DNA of 64,000 bases, from contig JAURYL010000018.1 in the NCBI GenBank assembly GCA_030653935.1, forward strand, positions 79,268-143,267, given 5' to 3'. The notes under the pieces are model-generated. The model worked only from the letters and a program-made list of their open reading frames with translations, was not told the DNA's origin and searched no databases. Source of the DNA: Pseudomonadota bacterium (GTDB lineage: Bacteria > Pseudomonadota > Gammaproteobacteria > Burkholderiales > Thiobacillaceae). The position numbers and the translations under genes were made by a program. Positions 1,005 through 36,643 of this stretch are shown here, in pieces. Each line of letters starts with the position of its first letter. Position 1 is the first letter of the stretch.

Positions 1005-3557
1005 ATGAGACCTGGCACCCCCTTCTCCATCGAAGTGAACCCCCGCATCCCGCGCCGCCTGGCGCGCCTGTCCGAGCTGGCGGAAAACCTCTGGTATGCC
1101 TGGGATCGCCCGACCCGCACCTTGTTCGCGCGCCTGCATCCCGGCCTCTGGGACGCGGTCAATCACAACCCCAAGGCCTTCCTCAAACGGGTGGACGAGG
1201 AACGTCTGACCGACGCCGCCGAAGACCATGTCTTCCTCGGCAGCTACAACCGCGTGCTGTCCTCGTTCGACACCTACATGAGCGAACCGCTCAAGCGCGA
1301 TCTGCCGCTGGAGCTGAAGCCGGGCGACCTGATCGCCTATTTCTGCGCGGAATTCGGCTTTCACGAAAGCTTCCCGGTGTATTCCGGCGGCCTCGGCATC
1401 CTTGCCGGCGACCATTGCAAGTCCGCCTCCGACATGCGTCTGCCCTTCGTGGCGGTGGGCCTGCTCTACCGCCAGGGCTACTTCCATCAACGCATCGACA
1501 ACGACGGCAACCAGATCGCCAACTACGCCGATTCCGATTTTGACGACCTGCCCATCCGCCCGGCGCTGACCGAGGATGGCGTCGAAATCCATGTGCTGAT
1601 CGAACTGCCCGGACGCACGCTGGAAGTGAAAGTCTGGGAAGCCCATGTCGGCCACGTCCGCCTTTACCTGCTCGACTCCGACCTTCCCTCGAACAGCCAG
1701 CAAGACCGCTACATCACCCACCAGCTCTACGGCGGCGACAAGCACACCCGCATCCAGCAGGAAATCGTGCTCGGCATTGGCGGCATGCGCGCTCTGGCCG
1801 CGCTCGACATCAAGCCCACCGCCTATCACATCAACGAAGGCCACGCCGCTTTCCTGGTGCTCGAACGCATTCGCCGCAAGGTGACCAACGGCCTGTCCTT
1901 TCATGCCGCGATGGAAGCGGTGGGCGCCTCCACGGTGTTCACCACCCATACCCCGGTGCCGGCCGGCCACGATCATTTCGCCGAAGACATGATCTGGGAC
2001 TATTTCAGCCACTGCTGCGCCGATCTCGGCATCTCGCGGGAAGAGTTCATGCGCCTGGGCGGCGCCGGCCACGGCCAGGACTTCAACATGACCCGCCTCG
2101 CCCTCAACGGCTCGCGCCACCACAACGGCGTCTCGCGCATCCACGGCGGTGTCTCCTCCAGCATCCTGGCGGATATGTGGCCACAGGTCGCCGAGAACGA
2201 ATCGCCGATGGACTACATCACCAACGGTGTCCACGTCGCCTCCTTCCTGGCGCAGGAATGGCAGGACATGTTCGACAACAAGCTGGGTTACGAATGGCGC
2301 CGGCGCATCTGCGAACCGGTTTTCTGGCGGCAGATCGAAGCCATACCCGACCACCTGTTCTGGTCGGTGCACCAGGGCCTGAAGGCGCAACTGCTCTATT
2401 CGGTGCGCTACCGCATCACCCAGCAACACCTGCGCAACCACGGTTCCGAGGCGCACCTGGAGCGCATGCTCAAGTTCGCCAACCCGCTCGACCCCAACGT
2501 CCTCACCATCGGCTTCGGCCGCCGCTTCGCCACCTACAAACGCGCCACCCTGATCTTCGAGAACATGGACTGGCTGCGTCAGATCATCAACGACCAGCAC
2601 CGCCCGGTGCTGTTCATCTACGCCGGCAAAGCGCACCCGGCGGACAAGCCCGGCCAGGAACTGATTCGCCGCATCCACGAGATTTCCCGGATGCCCGAGT
2701 TCGAGGGCAACTTCCTCATGGTCGAAGGCTACGACCTCGGCTTCGCGCGGCGCCTGGTCGCCGGCTGCGACGTCTGGCTCAACAACCCCATCTACCCGCT
2801 GGAAGCCTCTGGCACCTCCGGCATGAAGGCGGCGATGAACGGCGTCCTCAACCTCTCGGTCACCGACGGCTGGTGGGACGAAGGCTACCAACCGGGCAAC
2901 GGCTGGGCGATCAAGCCGGCACCCGAGTATTACGACGAAGCCCGGCGCAATCGCGAGGACAGCCAGACACTCTACGAACTGTTGCAGGATCAGGTCATCC
3001 CGCTCTACTACCGGCGCCAGGAACTGGGCTTCTCCGAGGAATGGGTGGACATGGCCAAGCGCTCCATTTCCACCTTGTTGCCCGCCTTCAATGCCACCCG
3101 CATGGTCATGGAGTACGCCAACAAGTTCTACGCGCCCGCCAGCCGGCAATGGCGCCGCTACTCGGAAGGCCACTTCGCCGCCGCGCAAGGGGTTGCCGCC
3201 TGGAAAGCCAAGGTGCGCGTCGCCTGGGACGGCGTCGCCCTGAACCGCATGGACGACCCGAAGAAGCGCATCAGCTTCGGCGAAAGCATGGAAATCCATG
3301 TCGCGGTCAATCTCAACGGACTCGCCCCCGAGGATGTCCGCGTCGAAGTGCTGCTCGGCCGCGCCTCCAAGAACGGCCAGGACAAGGACCTCGACGCGCT
3401 TCCCCTGGTGCCGGATGGCTGGAGCGGCCAGGAATGCATCTACAAGCTGGAAGTCACTCCGGAAATGTGCGGCCGCCTGCTCTACCGCGTCCGCGCCTAC
3501 CCGATGCACAGCCTGCTCACACACCCCTTCGAAATGGGGTTGATGGTATGGCTGTGA
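1005..3557 (+). CDS. alpha-glucan family phosphorylase (GlgP-like, maltodextrin-phosphorylase type)
   Basis: 850 aa. Motifs are GGLGILAGDH and EASGTSGMKAAMNGVLNLSVTDGWW, which carries the PLP-lysine. The architecture differs from the classical GT35 glgP at 19.7 kb. Confidence 0.9.
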   Translation: MRPGTPFSIEVNPRIPRRLARLSELAENLWYAWDRPTRTLFARLHPGLWDAVNHNPKAFLKRVDEERLTDAAEDHVFLGSYNRVLSSFDTYMSEPLKRDLPLELKPGDLIAYFCAEFGFHESFPVYSGGLGILAGDHCKSASDMRLPFVAVGLLYRQGYFHQRIDNDGNQIANYADSDFDDLPIRPALTEDGVEIHVLIELPGRTLEVKVWEAHVGHVRLYLLDSDLPSNSQQDRYITHQLYGGDKHTRIQQEIVLGIGGMRALAALDIKPTAYHINEGHAAFLVLERIRRKVTNGLSFHAAMEAVGASTVFTTHTPVPAGHDHFAEDMIWDYFSHCCADLGISREEFMRLGGAGHGQDFNMTRLALNGSRHHNGVSRIHGGVSSSILADMWPQVAENESPMDYITNGVHVASFLAQEWQDMFDNKLGYEWRRRICEPVFWRQIEAIPDHLFWSVHQGLKAQLLYSVRYRITQQHLRNHGSEAHLERMLKFANPLDPNVLTIGFGRRFATYKRATLIFENMDWLRQIINDQHRPVLFIYAGKAHPADKPGQELIRRIHEISRMPEFEGNFLMVEGYDLGFARRLVAGCDVWLNNPIYPLEASGTSGMKAAMNGVLNLSVTDGWWDEGYQPGNGWAIKPAPEYYDEARRNREDSQTLYELLQDQVIPLYYRRQELGFSEEWVDMAKRSISTLLPAFNATRMVMEYANKFYAPASRQWRRYSEGHFAAAQGVAAWKAKVRVAWDGVALNRMDDPKKRISFGESMEIHVAVNLNGLAPEDVRVEVLLGRASKNGQDKDLDALPLVPDGWSGQECIYKLEVTPEMCGRLLYRVRAYPMHSLLTHPFEMGLMVWL

Positions 3558-8775: not shown

Positions 8776-11565
8776 TCAGCCGGTATTGCGCATGCCCGCC
8801 GCGATGGCGTTGATGGAGCGCAGCAGAGGCTCCAGCCAGGGGCAGTCGCCCTCGCCCTCGGATTCCCGCAGTTTGCGCAGCAGTACGGCCTGGATGTGGT
8901 TGAGCGGGTCCAGGTAGGGGGTGCGATGGGCGAGGGAAATAGCCAGTTCCGGGGTTTCGTTCAGGAGGGAGGGGACGTCCGCGACATGGAGTATCTGGAG
9001 CACCGCGCGCTCGTGGCGCTGCCGGATCAGTTGGAAGATACGGCCGCCCGCTTCCGGGTCCTGGCAGAGTTTGGCGTAATCCGCGGCGACGCTCATGTCC
9101 GCCTTGTACAAGGCCATCTGGGCATTCGACAGCAGGGTGCGGAAGAACGGCCATTCCCGGTACATGGTCTGCAACTTGGCCAGGCGGGCGGGGTCCGTGC
9201 CGCGCCAGCGTTCGATGGCGCCGCCCATGCCGTACCAGGTGGGCAGAGCGTGGCGCGACTGGCCCCAGGCGAAGACCCAGCCGATGGCGCGCACCGAGCT
9301 GAGCGAGCGGTCGCCCTTCTTGCGATGCGAGGGCCGTGAACCGATGTTCAGCAGGCCGATTTCCTGCACTGGCGTGACTTCATAGAAGTAGTCGATGAAA
9401 CCCGGTGTGTGCTCGGTCAGGCCCCGGTAGACCTCTTCTCCCTCGGCGGCGAGCTCGTCCATGATGCCCAGGTAGTCCTTGCGGTCGGGCGGCGTCGGCC
9501 GTACCTGGTGGGTACTGGCCTTGAGCAACGCCGGTGACCCCCCAGCGTCAGTTCGTACACCGAGGTTTCCATGTTGTTGTACTTGTAGAACAACACTTCG
9601 CCCTGTTCGGTGAGCTTGAGCTGGCCGCGCACCGTGCCCGCCGGCTGCGCCAGGATGGCTTCATGGGTGGGGCCGCCGCCGCGACCGAGGGTGCCGCCGC
9701 GGCCGTGGAACAGGCGGCAGGGCACGCCGTGCCGGTCGGACAAGGCCATGATTCGTTTCTGCGCTTCGTACAGGTGCCAGGAGGAGGCGAGGATGCCGCC
9801 ATCCTTGCAGGAGTCGGAATAGCCGAGCATCACTTCCTGGTCGCCATTGAAGGCGTCCAGCAGGTTGCGGTAGATCGGCAGCGCGTAAAGCTGGTCGAGC
9901 ACCGTCTCCGCGTGTTTCAGATCGTCGATGGTCTCGAACAGGGGCGAGACGCCGATATGGCAGTACCAGCGCCCGCCCAGCCGCCCCGCGAGGCCAGTAG
10001 CATGACTTCGAGCACGTGCGAGGCGGTATGGGTCATGGAGATGACATAGCGGCCGAAGCAGTCCGGGCCGAGTTGCCGCCGCATGTAGGCGATGAGCTGG
10101 AAAACCCGCAGGATTTCCTGTCCGTCCTCGGACAGCCGCGCCGGCTCATAGCGCAGGGCATTGGGGTCGGCGAGGGCTTCCGCCAGCAGTTCGATCCGGG
10201 CCGGTTCGTCGAGCGCCAGATAATCGACGGCCAGGGCTTGCGTCAGGATTTCCGCCACGGTCTGGCTGTGGCGGGTGGATTCCTGGCGCACGTCCAGTTG
10301 CATCAGATGGAAGCCGAAGGTCTCCACCAGCAGGATCAGATCGCGCAACTCTCCGTGGGCGAGGCTTTCGTCGCCATGGCCGATCAGGGAGTCGCGGATC
10401 AGGCCCAGGTCCTCCAGGAAGGCGGCGGCGCCGGCATAGCCCGGTTCCTCGAATAGCTGCTCGTTCCCCGCCATGGCGCGCCGGTTCTGTTCCAGATTGC
10501 GGCGTATGCGGAACTGCATGATTTCCAGCTTGCGCCGATAGGGCTCCTGCGGGTGCGGATTGGGCTGGCCGCCGAACAACTGGCTGGCGACCCGGGCGTC
10601 CTGCTCCAGGCTGGCCATCAGGGCCGGCGAGGGTTTGCACAGGCGGTCGGACAGGGAAAGCTGGTCGAACAGCCGTTCCAGCCGGCGCAGATATTCCTCA
10701 TAGGCGGTTTCCGCCTGCATTCGCCAGGCCAGGGCTGTGACTTCCGTGGTGACGCCGGGATGGCCGTCGCGGTCGCCGCCGATCCAGGAGCCGAAGCGGA
10801 GGAAGGCGGGCGTCTTCAGGCGGCTGGCGACCGCTTCCCCGTAGACGTCGACCACGGCGGTATGGAAGTTGCGGTAGATCTGCGCCACCGCCTGGAACAG
10901 GGATTGCGGGAAATAGGAGAGGCCGGAATAGATCTCGTCGCGCACGTCGAGCTTGAAGGACCGCACTTCGTCGGTTTTCCAGAGGACGCGGATCTGGTTG
11001 GCCAGGCGATCCACCACTTCTTCCCGATACATGCCCTTGTTGCCATGCCCTTGTTGCGCGGGTCGTCCAGGTCTTCCACCGAGAGAAAGATGTTGCGCAG
11101 GGCTCCCTTGATGGTGCGCCGGCGGGCCTCGGAGGGATGCGCGGTCAGCACCGGCAGGTAGCAGAGGCGATCCAGCAGGGTCTGCAATTCCTCGGCCTCG
11201 ATGCCCTGCTGCTTCATCTCCAGCAAGGTGTCGTGGAAGGAGCCGAACCACATGTGCTTGCCTCGTTGCACCAGGCGCCGGCGGCGGCGTAACTGGGCGG
11301 TCTCCTCGGCGATGTGCACCAGGCTGAAATAGAGATTGAAGGCCCGGATGATGCTGGACATGGCCTCGGGCGACTGGTCTTCGATCAACTGGTCGAGCGC
11401 GGCGTGCCGAGCCGCGTCGGGCCGCTCGCGCAGCGCGATAAAGCCCTTGCGCAACTGGCCCAGCGCGTCATAAGTGGCGCGCGGCAGTTCGCTCTTCAGC
11501 ACCCGCGATAGCAGCAGGCTGAGCAGGCGTTCCCGTTTGCGTAAGTCTTTGTCGTTCGTAAGCAT
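8776..11565 (-). pseudogene. ppc: phosphoenolpyruvate carboxylase, disrupted by three frameshifts
   Basis: Four overlapping ORFs (10816-11733, 9917-11251, 9417-9902, 8776-9528) together read as a complete PEPC. Motifs include TAHPSEARRRT, VISMTHTASHVLEV, VSPLFETIDDL, FHGRGGTLGRGGGP and C-terminal GMRNTG. Frame changes occur at a 14-bp tandem duplication (11030-11057) and near C-runs at 9984-9987 and 9538-9543. Confidence 0.75.
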
Positions 11566-11584
11566 GGTTATCGCTGGTTGGCGG

Positions 11585-12652
11585 CTAGGCGCCGAGAATC
11601 TCCCGCAGCGCCGCGACCAGCGCCGCGCATTGCGCGTCGTCGCCGATGGTGATGCGCAGGTATTGTTCGATGCGGTCTTGGCGGAAGTGGCGGACGATGA
11701 TGCTTCTGGCGCGCAGCGCCGCCGCGAGTTCACCGGCGTCGTGGCCGGGGTGGCGGGCGAAGATGAAATTGGCGGCGGAGGGGAGCGTGTCGAAACCGAG
11801 CGCGGCCATCTCGGCGATCAGCCGTTCACGGCTGGCGATGACCGCCGCGCGCGTCAGCTCGAAATGTTCGCGATCCTCGATGGCGGCCGTGGCGCCGGCG
11901 ATGGCGAGGCGGTCGAGCGGATAGGAGTTGAAACTGTTCTTGATCCGCTCCAGCGCCTCGATCAGGGCCGCGTCGCCGACCGCGAAGCCGACCCGCAGTC
12001 CGGCCAGGGAGCGCGACTTGGACAGGGTCTGCACCACCAGCAGGTTGGGGTATTTGCCGACCAGGGCGATGGCGGTGTCACCGCCGAAATCGATGTAGGC
12101 CTCATCCACCACCACCACCACGTCCGGTCGCCCGGCCAGCAGCCGCTCGATTTCCACCAGCGGCAGCAGACGGCCGGTGGGTGCGTTGGGGTTGGGGAAG
12201 ATGATGGCGCCGCAGGCTGGCGCCTTCAGGTAGGCGTCGATCTCGATCTCGAAGCTTTCCGTCAGCGGCACCGTTTGCCCGTCGATGCCGTAGAGGCCGC
12301 AGTAGACGGGATAGAAGCTGTAGCTGATGTCCGGGAACAGCAGTGGCGCCTCGTGTTTGAGCAGGCCGAGAAAAGCGTGCGCCAGAACTTCGTCGGAGCC
12401 GTTGCCGACGAATACCTGATCCCGGTCGACCTGGTAATAGTCGGCGATGGCGGTCTTCAGGCGGTCGGAATTCGGGTCCGGATACAGTCGCAGGGAGTCG
12501 CCGACTTCGCCACGCAGCGCCGCCAGCGTGCGTGGCGACGGCGGATAGGGGTTTTCGTTGGTATTGAGTTTGACCAGATTGGACAGCTTGGGCTGTTCCC
12601 CCGGCACATAGGGGGTGAGTCCGGCGACGAGGGCGCTCCAGAATTGGCTCAT
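11585..12652 (-). CDS. hisC: histidinol-phosphate aminotransferase
   Basis: 355 aa. [14 protein letters not shown] and the class II aminotransferase pattern [12 protein letters not shown] are present. Confidence 0.9.
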
Positions 12653-12801
12653 GGCGATGGGGGTATAAAGGGAAAAGTGCGGCGGCGGAAAACTCGCCGG
12701 GGTTGGAACCCGAAAGCGGCCGTGATGTTATCATGCGGCCCGACTCTTCTCGCCCGCCCAGACTGTCTTCCACGCCTAGCGCCAAGCTCTCAAAGTAACC
12801 A

Positions 12802-13389
12802 ATGCGGCAAGCCGAACTCTCTCGCAATACCCTGGAAACCCGGATTCGCGTCCAGATCGACCTCGACGGTTCCGGTCGCGGCGTCTTCAAGACCGGCGTT
12901 CCGTTCCTCGAACACATGCTCGACCAGGTGTCGCGCCATGGCCTGATCGATCTCGATATCGAGGCCGAGGGCGATCTGCATATCGACGCCCACCACACCG
13001 CCGAAGATATCGGCATCACCTTGGGTCAGGCTTTCGCCAAGGCGTTGGGCGAGAAGAAGGGCATCCGCCGCTACGGCCATGCCTACGTGCCGTTGGACGA
13101 GGCGCTGTCGCGAGTGGTGATCGATCTTTCCGGTCGCCCCGGCCTGGAATTCCATGTGGATTTCACCCGCGCGCGCATCGGCGATTTCGACGTCGACCTG
13201 TTCCGCGAGTTTTTCCAGGGCTTCGTCAATCATGCCGGCGCTTCGCTGCATATCGACAACCTGCGCGGCATCAATGCCCATCATCAGGCGGAAACCATAT
13301 TCAAGGCCTTCGGCCGGGCGCTGCGCATGGCGGTGGAGCTGGACCCGCGCATGGGCGACACGCTGCCTTCGACCAAAGGCGCGCTGTAA
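12802..13389 (+). CDS. hisB: imidazoleglycerol-phosphate dehydratase
   Basis: [16 protein letters not shown]...HHTAEDIGI...[15 protein letters not shown] are IGPD signatures. Confidence 0.95.
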
Positions 13390-19717: not shown

Positions 19718-22237
19718 TTACGCCACCGGGGCCACTGGCGCCACCGGCGTCAGTTTCCAGATTTCGGCGTTGTATTCCCGCATGGTGCGGTCGGTGGAAA
19801 ATTTGCCGCTGCTCGCGGTGTTGAGGATGCTCATCCGGCTCCAGCGGTCGCGGTCGCGGTAGGCTGCCGCGGCCTCGGCCTGGGCATCGATGAAGGCGCG
19901 GAAATCGGCCGCCACCAGCCAGGGGTCGTGCGGGTCACGGATGGCGTTGATGATGGGGTCGAACAGGCCGGCCTCGAAGCGGTTGAAGTGGCCGGATTCG
20001 AGCAGGGTCATCACCCGCTTGAGGTCGGCGTCGGCTTCGATCAGCGCGTTCGGGTCGTAGGTCGCGCGGGTGGCTTCGACTTCCTCGGCGGTGAGGCCGA
20101 AGAGGAAGAAATTCTCGTCGCCCACTTCCTCGCGTATCTCGATGTTGGCGCCGTCCAGGGTGCCGATGGTGACCGCGCCGTTCATCATGAACTTCATGTT
20201 GCCGGTGCCGGAGGCTTCCTTGCCGGCGGTGGAAATCTGCTCTGACAGGTCCGTGCCCGGGGCGATGATTTCCATCGCCGAAACCCGGTAGTTGGGCAGG
20301 AACGCGACCTTGAGGCGGCCACCTACCTGCTCGTCACCATTGACCATTTCCGCCACCTTGCAGGTCAGGGTGATGATGCGCTTGGCCATGAAGTAGCCAG
20401 GCGCGGCCTTGCCGCCGATCAGCACGCAACGCGGCGTCCAGTCCTGGTCGTCACCGGCCTTGAGACGGGCGTAGAGGTGGATGACGTGGAGGAGGTTGAG
20501 CAACTGCCGCTTGTATTCGTGGATGCGTTTGACCTGAACGTCGAACAGCGCGTCGGGATCGAAATCGACGTTGCAGTCGTGCCGTACCAGCACCGCCAGG
20601 CGCGTCTTGTTGGCGTGCTTGACCGCTTGCCACTGGGCGCGGAATTCGGGGTTTTCCGCGAGGGGAGTCAGGTCGCGCAGGGTATCGAGCTGGCGAATCC
20701 AGGCGTCGCCGATGTTCGCCGTGATGAGCTTCGCCATCTCCGGGTTGGCCGAGGCCATCCAGCGTCGCTGGGTGACACCGTTGGTCTTGTTGTTGAACTT
20801 TTTCGGCCAGAGCTCGAAGAAATCGCGGAACAGGCCTTGCTGGAGCAATTCCGAGTGCAGCGCGGCGACGCCGTTGACGGAGTAGCTGCCGACGATGGCC
20901 AGGTAGGCCATGCGCACCTGCGGGTCGGGGCCTTCCTCGATCAGGGACATGCGCGCCAGGCGGGCGGCGTCGCCGGGCCAGCGGCGGGCGACATCGGTGA
21001 GAAAGCGGGTGTTGATCTCGTAGATGATCTCCATCTGACGCGGTAGTAACTGTCCGAACAGGCGTACCGACCATTTTTCCAGCGCCTCGGGCAGCAGGGT
21101 GTGGTTGGTATAGGCCATCGTTTTCGATGTGATCGCCCACGCTTCGTGCCACTCCAACCCATGCACATCCACCAGCAGGCGCATCAACTCGGGTACCGAG
21201 CAGCTCGGGTGGGTGTCGTTCAACTGGAAGCAGTTCTTCTCGGCGAACAGGCTGAAATCGTGGCCATGATGCTGTACCCAACGCGCCAATACGTCCTGGA
21301 GGCTGGCGGAGGCGAGGAAGTACTGCTGTTTCAGGCGCAGTTCCTTGCCGTTCTCGCTGGCGTCGTTGGGGTAGAGCACCATGGTGATGTTCTCGGCGGC
21401 ATTCTTGGCCGCCACCGACTCGGTGTAGGAGCCGGCGTTGAATTCGCCCAGGTCGAATTCATCGGTGGCCGCCGCGCTCCACAAGCGCAGCATGTTGACG
21501 GTATCGTTCTTGTAGCCCGGTATCGGCGTATCGAAGGGCACGGCAAGCACGTCGTTGCTGTTCACCCAGCGCACGTGAACGCGGCCATCGGTATCTTTGT
21601 AGTGCTCGGTGTGACCGTAATACTGGATGCGCCGGGTATGTTCCGGGCGTTCCACTTCCCAGGGGTTGCCGTCGCGCAGCCAGTGATCCGGCTCCTCGAC
21701 CTGGAGGCAGTTTTCCACGTGCTGGCGGAACATGCCGTATTCGTAACGGATGCCGTAGCCCATCACCGGCAGTTGCAGGGTGGCGCAACTGTCCAGGAAA
21801 CAGGCAGCGAGACGGCCAAGGCCGCCGTTGCCGAGGCCGGCGTCCGCTTCCACGTCGATCAGTTCTTCCAGGTCAAGGCCCAGGCGGCGCAAGGTCGGCG
21901 CCAGTGTGGTGTCGAGGCCGAGGTTGAGCAGCGCGTTGTTGAGCGTGCGCCCCATCAGGAATTCGAGCGACAGGTAATAAGCGTACTTGGCGTCCTTTTC
22001 CTCGTAGCCGTAGCGGGTGCGCTTCCAGCGCTCCATCAGCCGGTCGCGCAGGGTCAGCGCCAGGGCTTGATAGGGGTAATGGGTGGAGCGGCAATGCTTG
22101 TCGCGGCCGAGGAAATTGCCGAAATAGCGGCGGATGTCGAGTGCCAACGCCTCCTCGTCCATGCCGAGTGGCGGCAGTTGTGACAGTTCGGCCGAGGGTC
22201 TGCCGAGACGTAGGGGTTTCAGGCGTGAGTGATTCAT
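19718..22237 (-). CDS. glgP: glycogen phosphorylase (GT35)
   Basis: 839 aa. EASGTGNMKFMMNGAVTIGTLDGANIEI carries the PLP lysine, and LGNGGLGRLAACFLDS is present. Confidence 0.95.
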   Translation of the reverse strand: MNHSRLKPLRLGRPSAELSQLPPLGMDEEALALDIRRYFGNFLGRDKHCRSTHYPYQALALTLRDRLMERWKRTRYGYEEKDAKYAYYLSLEFLMGRTLNNALLNLGLDTTLAPTLRRLGLDLEELIDVEADAGLGNGGLGRLAACFLDSCATLQLPVMGYGIRYEYGMFRQHVENCLQVEEPDHWLRDGNPWEVERPEHTRRIQYYGHTEHYKDTDGRVHVRWVNSNDVLAVPFDTPIPGYKNDTVNMLRLWSAAATDEFDLGEFNAGSYTESVAAKNAAENITMVLYPNDASENGKELRLKQQYFLASASLQDVLARWVQHHGHDFSLFAEKNCFQLNDTHPSCSVPELMRLLVDVHGLEWHEAWAITSKTMAYTNHTLLPEALEKWSVRLFGQLLPRQMEIIYEINTRFLTDVARRWPGDAARLARMSLIEEGPDPQVRMAYLAIVGSYSVNGVAALHSELLQQGLFRDFFELWPKKFNNKTNGVTQRRWMASANPEMAKLITANIGDAWIRQLDTLRDLTPLAENPEFRAQWQAVKHANKTRLAVLVRHDCNVDFDPDALFDVQVKRIHEYKRQLLNLLHVIHLYARLKAGDDQDWTPRCVLIGGKAAPGYFMAKRIITLTCKVAEMVNGDEQVGGRLKVAFLPNYRVSAMEIIAPGTDLSEQISTAGKEASGTGNMKFMMNGAVTIGTLDGANIEIREEVGDENFFLFGLTAEEVEATRATYDPNALIEADADLKRVMTLLESGHFNRFEAGLFDPIINAIRDPHDPWLVAADFRAFIDAQAEAAAAYRDRDRWSRMSILNTASSGKFSTDRTMREYNAEIWKLTPVAPVAPVA

Positions 22238-28769: not shown

Positions 28770-28861
<92 letters not shown>

Positions 28862-29302: not shown

Positions 29303-30727
29303 CTATGCCGTTTCCAGCATGCTCCGATACAGCGCCTCATATTCCCGGGCGCTTTTTTCCCAACTGAAATCACGGCTCATGGCCGCGCGCATCATGCGTT
29401 TCCAGGCTTTCTTGTCGGCATGGGCGCGTAGGGCGCGGTCCACGGCGAGCCAGAGCGCGTGCGCGGTGGGTTCCTCGAAGACGAAGCCGGTGACGCCGTC
29501 TTCCACCGTGTCTTTGAGGCCGCCGGTGGCATGGACGACGGGAATCGTGCCGTAGCGCAGGCTGTAGAGCTGGTTGAGGCCGCAGGGCTCGAATCGGGAG
29601 GGCATCAGGAAAATGTCGGAACCGGCCTCGATCCGGTGCGAGAGACCTTCGTCATAGCCAATCACCGAGGCGACCTGGCCGGGATGCAGGGCGCCGAGGT
29701 CGCGGAAGGCCGCTTCCAGCACTTTTTCGCCGGTGCCCAGGAGCGCAATTTGGCCGCCCCGGTGCAGGATGCCGTCCGCCACCGCGAGGATGAGGTCGAG
29801 TCCTTTTTGGTGCGCCAGGCGAGCAATGACGCCGAATAGCGGTGCGTCCTTGTTGGGCTCCAGGTTCAGGTCCTGTTGCAGCTTGCTCTTGCAGCGTTGT
29901 TTGCCGGCGCGCGAGCGCGCGGAGAATTTGTGCGGCAGATGCGGGTCGTTGGCGGGGTCCCATTCCTCGGTGTCGATGCCGTTGAGGATGCCGACCAGAT
30001 CGGCGCCGCGTGTGCTGAGCAGGCCTTGCATGCCCATGCCGAGGGCGGGGAGGCGAATCTCCTCGGCATAGCTGGGCGAGACCGTGGTCAGGCGGTCCGC
30101 GTAGTAGAGGCCCGCCTTGAGGAAGGAGAGGCTGCCGTAATACTCGACGCCATCGATGGCAAAACTTTCCGGCGGCAGGCCCACCAGGCTCATATTGGCG
30201 CGGGGAAAGACGCCCTGATAGGCCAGGTTGTGCACAGTCATGATGCTGGGCGTCGTCTCTCCGGACAGGCGCAGGTAGGCCGGGGCGAGGCCGGTTTGCC
30301 AGTCGTTGCAATGCAGCAGGTCGGGGTGCCAGTCCAGCGGCGTGTCGCTGGCGGCGAGCATGGCGGCGACTTTGGAGAAGACGGCGAAACGCAGGGCGTT
30401 ATCCGGGTGGTCGTGGCCGGCGATGTCCTGATAGGGGCCGCCCTTGCGCTGGTACAGCTCGGGTGCGTCGACGATGTAGAGCGGCATCCCGTTGTCGGGC
30501 ATGCTGGCTTCCAGCAGGTTGGCAACCACGTCGCCCGGCAGGCCATTCAAGGCGCAAACGGGTTTTACATCGACACAGCCGGCGATGACGGCCGGGTATC
30601 CGGGCAGCAGGAGGCGGCAGTCGAGGCCGATTGCGCGCAGGGCCACCGGAAGGGCGCCGGACACATCGGCCAGACCGCCGGTTTTGATCAAGGGTCTGGC
30701 TTCGGAGGTGGCGAAAAGGATACGCAT
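29303..30727 (-). CDS. glgA: glycogen synthase (ADP-glucose type, GT5)
   Basis: MRILFATSEARPLIKTGGLADV is the KTGGL motif. 474 aa. Confidence 0.95.
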   Translation of the reverse strand: MRILFATSEARPLIKTGGLADVSGALPVALRAIGLDCRLLLPGYPAVIAGCVDVKPVCALNGLPGDVVANLLEASMPDNGMPLYIVDAPELYQRKGGPYQDIAGHDHPDNALRFAVFSKVAAMLAASDTPLDWHPDLLHCNDWQTGLAPAYLRLSGETTPSIMTVHNLAYQGVFPRANMSLVGLPPESFAIDGVEYYGSLSFLKAGLYYADRLTTVSPSYAEEIRLPALGMGMQGLLSTRGADLVGILNGIDTEEWDPANDPHLPHKFSARSRAGKQRCKSKLQQDLNLEPNKDAPLFGVIARLAHQKGLDLILAVADGILHRGGQIALLGTGEKVLEAAFRDLGALHPGQVASVIGYDEGLSHRIEAGSDIFLMPSRFEPCGLNQLYSLRYGTIPVVHATGGLKDTVEDGVTGFVFEEPTAHALWLAVDRALRAHADKKAWKRMMRAAMSRDFSWEKSAREYEALYRSMLETA

Positions 30728-30879: not shown

Positions 30880-32571
30880 ATGCGTAATAACCAGCCAGTC
30901 AGTCAACGCGAATACCCCTTGCGCGAAGGCGCGGTCATCCTTTCCTGGACCGATGCCAAGGGCAATATCACTTTCGCCAATGACGATTTCGTTGAGGCAT
31001 CAGGCTTTACCCGGGAGGAGTTGATCGGCCAGCCGCAGAATCTGGTGCGCCATCCCGATATGCCGGCCGAGGCCTTCCGTGATCTTTGGGCCACCATCAA
31101 GGCGGGCGACCCCTGGGTGGGGCTGGTCAAGAATCGGCGCCGCGATGGCGACCACTACTGGGTCAAGGCGACGGTGACGCCGACGCCCGACGGCGGTTTC
31201 ATGTCGGTGCGGATCAGGCCGGGGCGCGAGGAAGTGCAGGCCGCCGAGGCGCTCTACCAGCGCTTGCGTGAAGATTCCGATCTGCGCCTGGATGGCGGCA
31301 AGCCGGCGCCCAGCGTGTTCGGGCGCCTGTTGCGCCGGTTCATGGATCTCAATCTGTCCAGCAAGTTATGGCTGTCTACCCTGTCCTCGATGCTGGTCAT
31401 TCTGCTTTGCGCGGGACTCGGCTGGATGGCGATCGAGGAGGCGCGCGGTCTGCTGAAATGTGTCGAAGCTGACAAGGCGCAACCCTTGCAGGCTTCGCTC
31501 GACAGCTACGGTCTGATACTCGGGATCGCGGCGGCTGCGGCCCTGCTGTTGTGGCCCGCCATCGCCTTTGTGGTGGTGCGTTCGTTCACCACGCCGCTGC
31601 GTGACGCGGTGCAGGCGGCGCGCGGTATCGCCGCGTTCGATCTTTCGAAGCCGGCGCCGCTGGCCGGCCATGACGAGGTGGGCGAGGTGCTCGCGCAATT
31701 CGCCATCATGCGCAACAACCTGCTTGGCAATGCGTCCCTGATCAAACAGAGCACCCGCAAGCTGGATGCCGCCGCGCATGACCTTACCGTTTCCAGTTCG
31801 ACCAGCGCGCAAGCGGCGATGAGCCAGTCCGAGGCCGCCGCCGGCATGGCGGCGGCGGTGGAGGAGTTGTCGGTGTCGATCGATCAGGTGAGCGATCACG
31901 CCCGCGAGGCGAACGATGTCTCGCGCGAGTCGGGTGAACTGTCGCGCGAGGGCGGCCGCGTCATCCACTCCGCCGCCGACGAGATCGGCCATATTTCCGA
32001 GGCGGTGCAGGGCTCGGCGAAAACCATCCGCGAGCTGGAAAGTTATTCGGGAGAGATTTCCACCATCGTCGGCGTCATCAAGGAAATCGCCGACCAGACC
32101 AACCTGCTCGCACTCAATGCCGCGATCGAGGCGGCACGCGCCGGTGAGCAAGGGCGCGGTTTCGCCGTGGTGGCGGACGAAGTGCGCAAGCTGGCGGAGC
32201 GGACCGGTAATTCGACACAGCAGATCACCGGCATGATCGACAAGGTACAGAGCGGCGCCCGCCGCGCGGTCGAGGAAATGGAGGCCAGCGTCAAGCGGGT
32301 GAGTGATGGCGTCGAACTGGCGCACAAGGCCGGCGATTCGATCTCCAACATCCAGACCGCTTCCACCCGGGTGATGCAGGCGGTGGCGGACATCGATCAC
32401 GCGCTCAAGGAGCAAGGCATTGCGGCGCGTGAAATCGCCCAGAACGTCGAGCGGGTGGCGCAGATGACCGAGCAAGGCAGCCATGCCAGCCGCCAGGCCT
32501 CCGGCGTCGCGGATGACGTGGTGAATCTCTCCCTGGAACTGAAGCGTCTGGCCGATCTGTTCAAACTTTGA
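30880..32571 (+). CDS. methyl-accepting chemotaxis protein with N-terminal PAS domain (Aer-like)
   Basis: The PAS region is [33 protein letters not shown]...[12 protein letters not shown]. The signalling hairpin is [40 protein letters not shown]. Confidence 0.9.
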
Positions 32572-32686
32572 TCTCGCGGCGAGCGGCGTCGCCCGGTGTC
32601 GATTTCGTCGCTATGGCCGAGGGGAGTTCGCCCCATGAGCCCGGGGGTTGTACCATTCAACCGGGGCAACATCGACAATAGCCAAA

Positions 32687-33067
32687 ATGCTGAAAATAGA
32701 AGCGATGCAAATGGAGGTCATTGATCGGCGTTATTTCTATGGTCGGCTCGGCCTGTTTCTCGTCGACAACTGCCGCCGAGCGGATTTCAAGGACTGGGCA
32801 AGCGACACCGACCGCCTTTATTCGATGTGGGATGCCATCTGGCACGCCGCGCGCGAACACAGCGAACATGACTGCGCGTTGTTCCTGATATTCCTGGCGA
32901 TCTGTGCTTTCGAAGAGCGAGTTGTGGAAGCACCGGGAATATTGCTGGACCATGTTGCCGACCGGCGTGTGGTGCTCAAGCAATTCATCTCCGAACAGGG
33001 CTACTTCTACTTCACGGCATTCGACTACCCGACGGCAAGCCAGGAAGAAGGCGAAAACCATGTTTAG
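32687..33067 (+). CDS. hypothetical protein (first gene of the toxin-like cassette); start uncertain
   Basis: An ORF in a visibly lower-GC stretch with no motif I recognise. Its last 8 nt overlap the ATG of the next gene. Alternative starts lie at 32648 (TTG), 32705 and 32711. Confidence 0.45.
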   Translation: MLKIEAMQMEVIDRRYFYGRLGLFLVDNCRRADFKDWASDTDRLYSMWDAIWHAAREHSEHDCALFLIFLAICAFEERVVEAPGILLDHVADRRVVLKQFISEQGYFYFTAFDYPTASQEEGENHV

Positions 33068-34307
33068 CCGCAATGAAAAGCCGAGTGCCAAGAAAGCCTG
33101 CGTCAACCCATGCAAGGCGGCAAAGGAAAGCGACGACACCCTCTCGACGACGGCCCAGGAGCGCATCCAATCCTTTACCGGCAAGCCCGAGCCCGCCAAC
33201 GGGCTGTTGCCCAGCGACGATTCGCCCAGCCTGATGTCGGCCGATTCCAGCGCCTGCAAAAAGCGCGCGCTTAGCCTCGGCCCCACCCTGCGCCGCTTCA
33301 ATCGCTATCGCGAGGCCATGCCTTACGCGCGCGCCGCAAATGACATGAACAAACTGGGTGACAAGGCCGGCGGCAAGCAAACCAAGGACTGCCTGACCCG
33401 GCTGCCGGACAGCGGTGAGGACTTGTGCAAGGAACTCGGCCTGCCACCGGGCACCATCACCGACCAGGACTTGCGCGACGACAGCACTGGCTTTCGCGCC
33501 GAGATGTATCGCGACGAAGCCAGCGGCAAGCTGATCCTGGTCGCGCGCGACACCCAACCCAAATCGCTGGTGGACTGGCAGACCAACACCCGCAATGGCG
33601 AAGGCAAGGATACCGACCAGTATGCGGCGATGCGGGATCTGTCAGGCGACTTGGCTGATAACGGGGTGGCATTCGACGTGGCCGGCTATTCCAAGGGCGG
33701 CGGCCTGGCGCAGGAGGCGGCATTGGTCAACCCGAGCGCGCGGGCCTATGTCTTCAACTCGGCGGGCCTGCATGAGAACTCGCTGGTTCGCACCGGTGCT
33801 CAGGATTTCCAATCCCTGGAAAGCCGCACCCGCGCCTTCAGCGCCGACAACGACTTCCTCACCTACATGAACGAAACTCGCGACCCGCAACAACAGATCG
33901 ACAATGCCCGCTTCCTGCGGCGTGAACTCGAAGGCGAGAATCGCTCCATGCCCGATCCCATGAAGATCGACCACCGCAACCCCGAACTTTCGGATAGCGA
34001 TGACGACCCTAAATTCGAGCAGGACCGCGCGGCTTATTTCAAGGAAATCGACGGCATGATCGTGCGCATGGAACAGGACCAGGCCGCCGGCCGCGTGGTC
34101 AGGGCGTTTCCCCCTGTCCGCGCGGGCCAGAAGGAGACGATTCCCGGCAGCGACAGTTGGCTGGGCAACCGATTCGGTGCGAACGATCCCGGCCCCAACC
34201 TGGGCAAACTGGTCCAGCACCAGATGGGCAATGTACTCGGCCCGATGGAAAAGAACCTCACGGATGACCGTAAGGCTTTACAGGAATTTCTGAAAAAATG
34301 CCCATGA
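33060..34307 (+). CDS. alpha/beta-hydrolase, lipase-like (DUF2974/Lipase_3-like GxSxG), putative toxin effector
   Basis: ATG 33060 is in frame with ORF 32904-34307. KLILVARDTQPKSLVDWQTN...FDVAGYSKGGGLAQEAAL has a nucleophile elbow GYSKGG near 33684-33701. No signal peptide, with a charged, low-complexity N-terminus. Confidence 0.55.
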   Translation: MFSRNEKPSAKKACVNPCKAAKESDDTLSTTAQERIQSFTGKPEPANGLLPSDDSPSLMSADSSACKKRALSLGPTLRRFNRYREAMPYARAANDMNKLGDKAGGKQTKDCLTRLPDSGEDLCKELGLPPGTITDQDLRDDSTGFRAEMYRDEASGKLILVARDTQPKSLVDWQTNTRNGEGKDTDQYAAMRDLSGDLADNGVAFDVAGYSKGGGLAQEAALVNPSARAYVFNSAGLHENSLVRTGAQDFQSLESRTRAFSADNDFLTYMNETRDPQQQIDNARFLRRELEGENRSMPDPMKIDHRNPELSDSDDDPKFEQDRAAYFKEIDGMIVRMEQDQAAGRVVRAFPPVRAGQKETIPGSDSWLGNRFGANDPGPNLGKLVQHQMGNVLGPMEKNLTDDRKALQEFLKKCP

Positions 34308-35056
34308 ACCTGAGAAATCGTCCCCGCCTGCTGCTTGCCGCCGTGTTGGCGCTGGCCGGGGCGGGCTGGTGGTGGAATGCCAACGGGAGAACGAAAGTGA
34401 AACGAGGATTTTTCGAGAATGAAGCCGCCGCGCTGGAAGCCGCGATCAAGGCGGATGATCGCGCCGCCATCGCGCGCGTCCTCGCCAGTGGGGTGAACGT
34501 CAACACGCGCGGCTGGCACAACGTCACGCCGTTGATGCTGGCGGTGGATACCCTGAAACAACAGGCGGTCGCCGAACTGCTCGCGCGCGGCGCCGACCCC
34601 AATCTCAAGGCCGACGACGGAGCCGGCGCGGTCAGCCTCGCGGTCGCGAATTACCGCGAGGCGCCGGAGATTATGTTCATGGTGATCCGCGCCGGCGGCG
34701 ATCCAAACACTCGCCGCCCCGGTGACGACCCGGTCATCATGCGTTTCGTCAACGACCGCAACTGCGAATACATCCGCCACATGAAGGCGCTGGGCGCCAA
34801 TCTGGATATCACCACCCGCGCCGGCGATCCGATCATTACTGCTGCGTCCACACGGCGTGACTGGGATATCGCCTGGTGCCTGATCGAACTCGGTGCGAAA
34901 TACGACTACGAGAAGACTTCGCGTCGGCCGATCAGCAGATCACTGAAAAGTACTTTCCCCTCCCCGGATTCCCCCATCTACCCCTACAAGGTCAAGGTCT
35001 GGGAACACCTCAAAGCGCATGGCATCGCCGTGCCGCCGCTCAACGGGCCGGATTGA
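34304..35056 (+). CDS. exported ankyrin-repeat protein (putative immunity protein), copy 1
   Basis: N-terminal RPRLLLAAVLALAGAGWWW signal/anchor. Ankyrin-like repeats are GVNVNTRGWHNVTPLMLAV..LKQQAVAELLARGADPN and others. The start overlaps the hydrolase stop as ATGA, and an alternative ATG lies at 34298. Confidence 0.7.
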   Translation: MNLRNRPRLLLAAVLALAGAGWWWNANGRTKVKRGFFENEAAALEAAIKADDRAAIARVLASGVNVNTRGWHNVTPLMLAVDTLKQQAVAELLARGADPNLKADDGAGAVSLAVANYREAPEIMFMVIRAGGDPNTRRPGDDPVIMRFVNDRNCEYIRHMKALGANLDITTRAGDPIITAASTRRDWDIAWCLIELGAKYDYEKTSRRPISRSLKSTFPSPDSPIYPYKVKVWEHLKAHGIAVPPLNGPD

Positions 35057-35076
35057 TCCGGCCTTCGCTCTCCCCC

Positions 35077-35829
35077 ATGAACCCGAGAAATCGTCCCCGC
35101 CTGCTGCTTGCCGCCGTGTTGGCGCTGGCCGGGGTGGGCTGGTGGTGGAATGCCAACGGGAGAACGAAAGTGAAACGAGGATTTTTCGAGAATGAAGCCG
35201 CCGCGCTGGAAGCCGCGATCAAGGCGGATGACCGCGCCGGCATCGCGCGCGTCCTCGCCAGTGGGGTGAACGTCAACACGCGCGGCTGGCACAACGTCAC
35301 GCCGTTGATGCTGGCGGTGGATACCCTGAAACAACAGGCGGTCGCCGAACTGCTCGCGCGCGGTGCCGACCCCAACCTCAAGGCCGACGACGGTGCCGGC
35401 GTGGTCAGTCTCGCGGTCGCGAATTACCGTGAGGCACCCGAAATCATGTTCCAGGTGCTCCGCGCCGGCGGCGACCCGAACGCTCGCCGCCCCGGTGACG
35501 ACCCGGTCATCATGCGTTTCGTCAACGACCGCAACTGCGAATACATCCGCCACATGAAGGCGCTGGGCGCCAATCTTGATATCACCACCCGCGCCGGTGA
35601 TCCGATCATCACCGATGCGGCGCTCGGGCAAGATTGGGATGTCGCCTGGTGCCTGATCGAACTCGGCGCCAAGTACGATTATGAGCGGACCTCGCGCCAG
35701 CCGATCAGTGAATCCCTGCGCGGCACCTTCCCCGCCCCGGATTCCCCCATCTACCCCTACAAGGTCAAGGTCTGGGAACACCTCAAAGCGCATGGCATCG
35801 CCGTGCCGCCGCTCAACGGGCCCGATTGA
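35077..35829 (+). CDS. exported ankyrin-repeat protein (putative immunity protein), copy 2 (tandem paralog)
   Basis: Same length as copy 1 (250 aa). By manual alignment 19 residues differ. ATG 35077 is in frame with ORF 34876-35829. Confidence 0.7.
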   Translation: MNPRNRPRLLLAAVLALAGVGWWWNANGRTKVKRGFFENEAAALEAAIKADDRAGIARVLASGVNVNTRGWHNVTPLMLAVDTLKQQAVAELLARGADPNLKADDGAGVVSLAVANYREAPEIMFQVLRAGGDPNARRPGDDPVIMRFVNDRNCEYIRHMKALGANLDITTRAGDPIITDAALGQDWDVAWCLIELGAKYDYERTSRQPISESLRGTFPAPDSPIYPYKVKVWEHLKAHGIAVPPLNGPD

Positions 35830-35836
35830 TCCGGGC

Positions 35837-36643
35837 TTACGCCATCCAGATCACGCTCGCCATGCGGCCGGTACGCGGTTCGCGTCGATAGGAGAAAAAA
35901 CGCGGGTCGCTGTGGGTGCAGAGGCCGCCACCGTAGACCGCCGTCACGCCGATGGTGGCGAGGTGGATGCGTGCTAGCACGTAGATGTCCGCCAGCCATT
36001 TGCGTGGCGCCTCGTCCAGGGTGCCGGGCAGGGCGGGGCGGAAGGCGATGCCGGCGAGTGGGTGGCGGCTGATGAAGGCTTCGCGCACTTCGTCGCCGAC
36101 CTCGAAGGTTGTCGGGCCGATGGCCGCGCCCAGCCAGGCGAGGATGCGCTCGGGTGGGGTGTTCATGGCGGCGACCGTCGCTTCCAGCACGCCACCGGCG
36201 AGGCCGCGCCAGCCGGCGTGGGCGGCGGCCACCACCGTGCCGGCGGTGTCGCAGAACAGCACCGGCAGGCAGTCGGCGGTCAGCACGGCGCGGACTTCAC
36301 CGGGCTGGAAAGCGACGGCGGCGTCGGCGAGGGGAGGGGTCGTAGGATGTGGTGAGCTGGCGAACCGCATCGATTCGCATGATGCGGTTCGTTCCTCGCC
36401 ACATCCTACGGCTTGTCCCGCGACTTCGGTGCCATGCACCTGATTCAGCCAGAGCGGTTCCGCGGGTAGCCACTGCCGCAACAGGCGACGATTCTCGGCC
36501 ACGGCTGCCGGGTCGTCATCGACATGAGCGGCCAGGTTGAAACTGTCGAAGGGCGGACGGCTGACGCCGCCGGCACGGGTGGTCATGAAGGCGCGCACAT
36601 TGTCCGGCGCGGGCCAGTCGGGGGTGATCCAGTCTGGGGGCAT
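35837..36643 (-). CDS. pgeF: peptidoglycan editing factor PgeF (YfiH / laccase-domain family) carrying an in-frame REP insertion
   Basis: SFNLAAH, NQVHG, TADCLPVLF, AHAGWRG, FFSYRR and GRMASVIW all match YfiH. About 20 extra residues lie between the QVHG and ADA motifs. Confidence 0.85.
   Translation of the reverse strand: MPPDWITPDWPAPDNVRAFMTTRAGGVSRPPFDSFNLAAHVDDDPAAVAENRRLLRQWLPAEPLWLNQVHGTEVAGQAVGCGEERTASCESMRFASSPHPTTPPLADAAVAFQPGEVRAVLTADCLPVLFCDTAGTVVAAAHAGWRGLAGGVLEATVAAMNTPPERILAWLGAAIGPTTFEVGDEVREAFISRHPLAGIAFRPALPGTLDEAPRKWLADIYVLARIHLATIGVTAVYGGGLCTHSDPRFFSYRREPRTGRMASVIWMA
36342..36409. repeat. palindromic REP (GTAGGATGTGGTGAGC family) located inside the pgeF coding sequence
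   Basis: gtaggatgtggtgagctggcgaaccgcatc-gattcgcat-gatgcggttcgttcctcgccacatcctac. Same family as 5305-5391. Confidence 0.7.

Follow-up and report, generated by a model that had tools for sequence, protein, structure and literature searches.

A stretch of 64,000 nucleotides from a Thiobacillaceae metagenome-assembled genome (MAG; contig JAURYL010000018.1, positions 79,268 to 143,267), hereafter the window, carries four genes on the plus strand between a chemoreceptor (MCP) gene and pgeF: a small open reading frame (ORF), here called X, a lipase-like gene, and two genes for exported ankyrin-repeat proteins. This locus raises the question of what such a cassette is for and, if the lipase is a toxin against which the ankyrin proteins give immunity, how the toxin would leave the cell. 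An earlier account made from the letters alone, termed the sequence-only reading below, took the cassette for an orphan effector-immunity pair of an undescribed kind. We conclude that it is most probably an orphan effector module of a type VI secretion system (T6SS), of the Tle6 kind and organized as a four-gene operon, on the grounds of homology, protein fold, conserved catalytic residues, gene order, and fusions to spike and adaptor domains in relatives. The pairing of such a lipase with ankyrin proteins has already been described, and the new points lie mostly in the adaptor-lobe family of X and in a set of conserved cysteines. The features of the cassette are as follows.

32687-33067, plus strand: small ORF X, 126 amino acids from ATG 32687 (alternative start 32648)
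33060-34307, plus strand: Tle6-like lipase, PF26363 'Phospholipase-like', alpha/beta-hydrolase, 415 amino acids from its ATG
33684-33701, plus strand: nucleophile elbow GYSKGG, which holds the predicted catalytic Ser211 (codon 33690-33692)
33852-33854, plus strand: predicted catalytic acid Asp265, from D/E conservation and alignment with Glu393 of Tle
34218-34220, plus strand: predicted catalytic His387, from conservation and topology
34304-35056, plus strand: putative ankyrin immunity protein 1, Tli-like, 250 amino acids (the annotated ATG 34298 is an alternative start)
35077-35829, plus strand: putative ankyrin immunity protein 2, Tli-like, 250 amino acids, tandem paralogue of protein 1
34301-35829, plus strand: immunity gene duplicated in tandem, 773-bp period

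The four co-directional genes, which overlap or are closely spaced, appear both in the ORF list and among the public gene calls of the contig. X and the lipase meet at 33060-33067 (ATGTTTAG) with an overlap of 8 nt between the lipase ATG and the X stop, and a Shine-Dalgarno-like run, GGAAGAAGG, lies 8-16 nt 5' of this ATG. At the junction between the lipase and ankyrin protein 1 (ATGCCCATGA at 34298-34307), an ATGA occupies positions 34304-34307. Both coupled junctions had been claimed by the sequence-only reading and were read in the sequence here, as was the low guanine-cytosine (GC) content of the 5' part: the small ORF has the lowest value in the cassette (0.54), the window as a whole having 0.64 and the flanking genes 0.64-0.69.

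The lipase and its ankyrin partners

The 370 homologues of the lipase found in a large protein database all carry the precomputed Pfam family PF26363, 'Phospholipase-like'. The only significant match among PDB sequences was the 'T6SS lipase effector' 7ubz_B/9cys, both for the single sequence (phmmer, E = 1.5e-9) and for a profile of 54 homologues (E = 2.2e-13). A database query with the 7UBZ_B fragment returned 'phospholipase' fragments from Pantoea, Cronobacter, and Serratia, all of them with PF26363, so the window lipase and Tle of Enterobacter cloacae share one Pfam family. An AlphaFold2 model built from the homologue alignment had a predicted local distance difference test score (pLDDT) of 93.1 and a predicted template modelling score (pTM) of 0.91, and its top Foldseek match in the PDB was 9cys_A, a complex of the E. 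cloacae T6SS lipase and its immunity protein (E = 4.8e-10, template modelling (TM) score 0.69).

Tle of E. cloacae is a T6SS phospholipase A1 that is neutralised by Tli (Jensen et al. 2023, 2024; 10.1101/2023.03.28.534661; PMC11470151). It falls outside Tle1-5 and is homologous to Slp of Serratia, and the name Tle6 has been proposed for these enzymes, which are 'invariably' linked to ankyrin-repeat immunity genes; related lipase domains are fused to VgrG, PAAR, DUF4150, Rhs, and CdiA (PMC11470151; 10.1101/2023.03.28.534661). The window module resembles the characterised pairs (Tle ECL_01553 with Tli ECL_01554 of E. cloacae, Slp of S. marcescens; structures 7UBZ and 9CYS) in the PF26363 family and alpha/beta-hydrolase core, the G-x-S-x-G-G elbow, the same order of serine, acid, and histidine, the lack of a signal peptide, an exported ankyrin immunity gene directly 3', and family members fused to VgrG, PAAR, and DUF4150-like domains. 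By sequence and structural model, the 415-residue lipase is a divergent member of the proposed Tle6 family and thus of a kind already described. The sequence-only reading had found no place for the pair among Tle/Tli families, a view that the PF26363 membership, the 7UBZ/9CYS matches, and the published Tle6-ankyrin family overturn.

The next Foldseek matches were class-3-lipase-like feruloyl esterases of Aspergillus niger (1usw, 2bjh, and 1uza; E about 5e-4 to 1e-3), which makes class-3 lipases (A. niger feruloyl esterase A, Rhizomucor miehei lipase) the second-best fold relatives. However, these are secreted fungal enzymes from a different context, and a Pfam scan at E <= 1 gave no Lipase_3, DUF2974, or DUF2235 match, only a sub-threshold Thioesterase. 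The earlier comparison with Lipase_3/DUF2974 hydrolases therefore holds for the fold and not for the Pfam families. An NCBIfam scan returned only a weak SA1320 match (22 bits against a cutoff of 230), and one homologue is labelled 'DUF2974 domain-containing' by NCBI. Tle1-Tle5 (Russell et al. 2013) are likewise antibacterial (phospho)lipases that act in the periplasm and are countered by periplasmic immunity proteins, and Tle1-4 use a GxSxG serine. However, the window lipase has no match to DUF2235, the domain of Tle1, or another lipase domain at the same Pfam threshold, Tle5 being marked by a PLD domain with HxKxxxxD, and the immunity proteins of Tle1-Tle5 are not of the ankyrin type.

Ser211, Asp265, and His387 form the predicted catalytic triad, corresponding to Ser341/Glu393/His448 of Tle (PMC11470151). 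Ser211 is kept by 54/54 homologues and, at identities down to 44%, by 18 more distant loci whose lipase is intact; in the alignment with Tle it is matched by Ser341, within the motif AGHSLGGG. Position 265 is always acidic, with 45 D and 9 E among the 54 homologues, and an acid is kept in the 18 distant loci. In the profile alignment Asp265 pairs with the catalytic Glu393, the Tle chain numbering being anchored on Ser341 as chain residue 182 (offset 159, which places Glu393 at chain residue 234). His387 is likewise present in 54/54 homologues and wherever a distant locus has an intact lipase. The alignment with Tle stops short of it, and this residue was assigned by conservation and topology: it directly precedes the C-terminal helix, like His448 in Tle.

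The lipase has no hydrophobic N-terminal segment and a maximum 19-residue Kyte-Doolittle score of 0.44, in agreement with the earlier statement that it has no signal peptide. Its N-terminus, which had been described as disordered, is instead predicted to be ordered, since residues 1 to about 100 are helical and packed on the lipase core in the AlphaFold2 model (pLDDT 81-97). This helical region differs from that of Tle, and four cysteines of the lipase are universally conserved: C18, C66, C111, and, at the other end of the protein, C414. The window enzyme also has an Asp as catalytic acid where Tle has a Glu (as do 9/54 homologues).

Tli, a lipoprotein of the periplasm, has six ankyrin repeats and is also needed in the cytoplasm, where it activates Tle by templating a methylglyoxal-derived (MODIC) crosslink between Arg180 and Lys461 (10.1101/2023.03.28.534661; PMC11470151). 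Both downstream proteins of the window have Ank_2/Ank matches above the Pfam thresholds, with alignments across residues ~41-204 in protein 1. As the sequence-only reading had stated, their repeats follow an N-terminal signal or anchor, here an R-rich segment and a 16-residue hydrophobic segment, LLLAAVLALAGAGWWW; in protein 1 a possible cleavage site between ALA and G follows this h-region. Unlike Tli, they lack a lipobox and are duplicated.

The two paralogues share 92% amino-acid and 92.4% DNA identity, with a synonymous divergence (dS) of 0.20, a non-synonymous divergence (dN) of 0.045, and a dN/dS of 0.22, which indicates that both copies are maintained by purifying selection. Their similarity starts at 34301, 3 nt 5' of the start codon, and the repeat search gave the 773-bp tandem period. 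Identity is 98% over the initial 300 nt and only about 89% beyond them, which suggests that the 5' part has undergone gene conversion or that the 3' part (residues 180-220) has diverged faster. The amino-acid differences cluster at residues 180-185 and 204-220, which would fit a contact surface that has diversified. A short GC-rich inverted repeat (GGCCGGATTGATCCGGCC at about 35046-35063) spans the stop codon of each copy.

Related loci were collected by a scan of one genome per species, which gave 39 loci from Beta-, Gamma-, Alpha-, and Deltaproteobacteria and Acidobacteria, among them two from cultured bacteria, Erythrobacter donghaensis DSM 16220 (L025) and Scleromatobacter humisilvae BS-T2-15 (L031). 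Wherever a related locus includes DNA beyond the 3' end of the lipase, the lipase is followed directly by one to four homologous ankyrin genes, 35-70% identical to those of the window. Their N-termini are always export signals: many are lipoboxes, some are of the signal-peptidase-I type, and some are Trp-rich anchors like those of the window. Three loci (L040, 7-2374; L043, 2565-6680; L045, 4389-12889) contain two to four ankyrin genes amid truncated 3' fragments of the lipase and frameshifted copies of X or the lipase, an orphan-module pattern typical of polymorphic toxin loci. A deltaproteobacterial MAG (MFD01721.bin.1.130) has two separate copies of the module, L033 and L044.

Several relatives tie the lipase to T6SS spikes. 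A Tox-PAAR-like/PAAR domain is fused to the N-terminus of relatives P0036 and P0039, a PAAR_motif to the lipases of L027 and L030 (E about 1e-19 to 1e-20), and a full VgrG (Phage_GPD and Phage_base_V) to that of L046. Furthermore, vgrG, PAAR, and DUF4123 genes adjoin the module in L010, L020, L021, L024, and L043. These fusions and adjoining spike genes, which are usual marks of effectors carried on T6SS spikes, indicate that the lipase family is a T6SS payload. Together with the retention of the lipase-ankyrin pair in every related locus, they sustain the effector-immunity interpretation and the orphan status of the site proposed earlier. Tle6-like modules accordingly range well outside Enterobacterales and occur in Beta-, Alpha-, and Deltaproteobacteria and in Acidobacteria. 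This MAG and hundreds of 'hypothetical' homologues can also be given a corrected annotation.

Gene X and the DUF4123 adaptors

X is the only T6SS link that was found inside the window. It most likely starts at ATG 32687, since its homologues align from that Met, and it has no match in Pfam, NCBIfam, or PADLOC. An exhaustive hidden Markov model (HMM) search with X against 1.84 billion representatives returned 61 cluster representatives, mostly stand-alone proteins of 110-130 residues. Three of these relatives (P0129, P0132, and P0170) are longer, at 300-315 residues, and have an N-terminal DUF4123 domain (PF13503, E 1e-26 to 1e-30). The X profile matches their residues ~184-315 with E-values from 1e-25 to 2e-7; their C-terminal ~115 residues are the X domain. 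The DUF4123-X fusion also occurs in L043, in L048-L051, and, frameshifted, in L021. The gene for P0129 lies directly 5' of a lipase that is 60% identical to that of the window. The family HMM located X directly 5' of about 30 lipases that are unfused, whereas the lipases fused to PAAR, PAAR-like, or VgrG domains gave 0/4.

DUF4123 adaptors are bilobed, and their conserved N-lobe binds a helix-turn-helix that VgrG has at its C-terminus (Colautti et al. 2024, PMC11582642). Their C-lobe is variable, helical, and effector-binding, and the two lobes can be encoded by separate ORFs, as in TecT/co-TecT (PMC11582642). The AlphaFold2 model of X is all-helical (pLDDT 92.3), the protein is cytoplasmic, and a Foldseek search of the model against the PDB gave no match at E < 1. 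No PF13503 match was found in X by Pfam, and no DUF4123 anywhere in the window by tblastn. Lacking the N-lobe, X is a C-lobe-only protein and not a full member of the DUF4123 family. Judging from the fusions and by analogy with co-TecT, we conclude that X is probably a stand-alone, lipase-specific, effector-binding C-lobe of the DUF4123 (Tap/TEC) adaptors, for which binding to the lipase is a predicted property.

The closest comparison is with TecT/co-TecT, which serve TseT via PAAR4 in Pseudomonas aeruginosa, and with Tap6/Tap14: X would likewise be a helical C-lobe ORF directly 5' of its effector. In contrast to TecT/co-TecT, X has no Pfam or PDB likeness and no N-lobe partner in the window, and its binding to the lipase is presumed. 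In one related locus (L010, 30-3770, from a Lamprobacter sp. MAG, NZ_JAYESN010000136.1), an ORF with only the DUF4123 N-lobe, cut by the contig end, is followed by a PAAR gene (164 residues), X, the lipase, and an ankyrin gene, an order that mirrors the split-adaptor layout TecT/PAAR4/co-TecT/TseT (PMC11582642). Another locus (L024) has a different small ORF in the place of X, after a gene for a DUF4123 N-lobe. Read as a detached effector-binding lobe, X gives a second natural example of the split-adaptor principle after TecT/co-TecT.

Another origin of X, as a detached PAAR-like domain, was considered and rejected: BLASTP against the Tox-PAAR-like-fused P0039 found nothing, and X is also unrelated to the 128-residue gene 5' of P0039.

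In the mechanism that we infer, the host genome would encode a T6SS, X would act as a cytoplasmic, helical effector-recognition C-lobe that binds the lipase, and the lipase, having no signal peptide, would be loaded on a VgrG/PAAR spike either by X itself or with the help of a DUF4123 N-lobe protein whose gene lies elsewhere. Firing by the T6SS would bring the lipase to the periplasm of a Gram-negative neighbour, and there it would be toxic through hydrolysis of membrane phospholipids. The ankyrin proteins, exported to the periplasm of the producer, would give immunity by binding and neutralising lipase that arrives from sibling cells, in the way that Tli neutralises Tle. They might in addition be required for effector maturation, again on the model of Tli.

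Genomic setting and competing explanations

The cassette is flanked by two genes.

30880-32571: PAS/HAMP chemoreceptor (MCP) gene, flanking the cassette 5'
35837-36643, minus strand: pgeF, flanking the cassette 3'

A gap of 115 bp separates the stop codon of the MCP gene from the start of X. The neighbour genes of the module differ in every related locus, in accordance with the earlier expectation that homologues would sit in variable loci and not consistently in housekeeping operons of lipid metabolism. Among pgeF loci from metagenomes, the cassette was found in 0/80, including a relative that is 79-85% identical across relA-bamD-rluD-pgeF. The absence from these loci and the differing neighbours indicate that the cassette is accessory, and the GC dip at its 5' end points the same way. 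As for its possible insertion between the MCP gene and pgeF, the closest relative, L052, has other genes beyond pgeF and neither MCP nor glgA, which is a synteny break and not a clean empty site.

Several results weigh against the conclusion that the cassette is a T6SS effector module of the Tle6 kind. No T6SS domain was found in the 10 largest ORFs of the window, and tblastn with VgrG, PAAR, Tox-PAAR-like, and DUF4123 seeds found nothing in it, in keeping with the earlier statement that it holds no T6SS, VgrG, or PAAR gene. With no gene for a spike or an adaptor N-lobe in 64 kb, delivery in the host is unproven, and the cassette could be stranded or an immunity-only remnant. At least one unfused relative, L033, has no X. 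As for the lipase itself, a local Pfam scan gave no PF26363 match, the family assignment being a precomputed annotation; the sequence alignment with Tle covers only ~105 core residues around the nucleophile elbow; identity to 9cys_A is 15% across the whole Foldseek alignment; and the acid and His are 122 residues apart in the lipase and 55 in Tle, about 65 residues more. The Lys of the activating Arg-Lys crosslink of Tle (Lys461) has no apparent conserved counterpart in the lipase family.

The alternative that survives best, although we regard it as unlikely, is that the module descends from a T6SS island and has decayed or become stranded, so that the lipase is no longer delivered for want of a cognate spike or N-lobe and the locus is kept mainly for immunity against the Tle6-like lipases of neighbours. 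The lack of VgrG, PAAR, and DUF4123 genes in 64 kb would fit this explanation, as would an X without the VgrG-binding N-lobe, the duplication of an immunity gene with both copies under purifying selection (dN/dS 0.22), and the immunity arrays with truncated lipase fragments in L040, L043, and L045. However, the lipase and X are intact and translationally coupled and keep all conserved catalytic and Cys residues, and a stand-alone X with the lipase is the majority layout (about 30 loci), which argues for function. Moreover, T6SS cargo effector genes are commonly distant from the core cluster.

The cassette could also encode a toxin-immunity pair with another means of delivery, such as contact-dependent inhibition (CDI) through a type V secretion system (T5SS), outer-membrane vesicles, or another contractile system. 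Related lipase domains do occur at the C-termini of CdiA and Rhs (Jensen et al., 10.1101/2023.03.28.534661), and the window has no T6SS genes. This explanation is nevertheless highly improbable, for the only fusion partners seen in the subfamily of the window lipase are PAAR, Tox-PAAR-like, and VgrG domains, its links are to DUF4123 adaptors, and the window lipase has no CdiA, Rhs, or secretion-signal part. The least credible explanation, to which we give almost no weight, is a housekeeping or defence role, either as a cytoplasmic esterase of lipid metabolism with ankyrin partners or as an anti-phage system: glgA, pgeF, and rluD nearby are housekeeping genes and the ankyrin proteins weakly match ankyrin-containing PADLOC candidates, but those matches are generic repeats, neither the lipase nor X matches PADLOC, the neighbour genes are different at each locus, of the enzyme and its ankyrin partners only the latter are exported, and relatives are fused to spikes.

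A T6SS effector module thus remains the preferred explanation of the cassette, and it differs from the Tle locus in that no T6SS locus surrounds it and in having a small adaptor-lobe gene of its own. The delivery route, for which the sequence-only reading could offer no candidate, is partly answered by X, the T6SS adaptor lobe that it had missed; the absence of a spike gene from the window stands as it had been reported.

Conserved cysteines and minor features of the window

C18, C66, C111, and C414, the penultimate residue, are conserved in every lipase member examined. With C14 included, five cysteines are conserved in 53-54 of 54 homologues, C14 being lost only in PAAR- and PAAR-like-fused forms. 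Their codons are as follows.

33099-33101, plus strand: C14
33111-33113, plus strand: C18
33255-33257, plus strand: C66
33390-33392, plus strand: C111
34299-34301, plus strand: C414

The lipase with these residues is made in the reducing cytoplasm. In the helix after His387, where Tle has Lys461 of the MODIC crosslink, no Lys is conserved: positions 398, 401, and 405 are variable, and the termini are unaligned to the Tle sequence. A search with the 7UBZ_B fragment for full-length Tle6 sequences returned only short fragments. Since the crosslink Lys has no apparent conserved counterpart, the details of activation may differ from those of Tle, and together with the conserved Cys set this suggests a different stabilisation or activation in this branch. 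In Tle the N- and C-terminal helices have to be held together, and a disulfide introduced by design can do the work of the crosslink (PMC11470151), which makes a Cys-based tether an attractive hypothesis for the branch of the window.

We propose, tentatively and with more doubt than confidence, that this branch, which is widespread in the environment, may combine a stand-alone adaptor-lobe family not described before, X, which loads the lipase without an attached DUF4123 N-lobe, with a four-Cys tether that replaces the MODIC crosslink. X may dock on a generic N-lobe or a PAAR protein supplied in trans, or directly on the spike. The tether of C18, C66, C111, and C414 would consist of disulfides or a zinc site and would join the N- and C-termini. 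If it consists of disulfides, these could form only in the oxidising periplasm of the target, and the toxin would be switched on by delivery.

Several Burkholderiales homologues (L026, L031, L034, L015, L017, and L041) have an apparent lipase start of MGCFS(K/R), which recalls the eukaryotic N-myristoylation/palmitoylation motif of some host-targeted effectors. The window lipase starts with MFSRN, without Gly2/Cys3, and the likeness to the myristoylation motif may be coincidental.

Scans of 32.4-36.0 kb gave no sigma-70-like promoter match, and terminator-like sites there were no commoner than in shuffled sequence. The sole tRNA within 25-45 kb, tRNA-Ser(GGA) at 28770-28860, lies ~4 kb 5' of the cassette, and glgA and the MCP gene stand between the two, so that this tRNA is no obvious integration site.

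Elsewhere in the window, a phosphoenolpyruvate (PEP) carboxylase signal covering profile positions 168-519 of 919 falls in a 444-residue ORF (9917-13019, minus strand). Overlapping same-strand ORFs surround it, and the gene may be frameshifted or mis-assembled in the MAG. Two genes of the carbohydrate/glycogen phosphorylase family lie at 1005-3557 and 19718-22237, one being of the DUF3417 alpha-glucan phosphorylase type and the other classical; together with glgA (29303-30727), they make the window rich in genes of glycogen metabolism.

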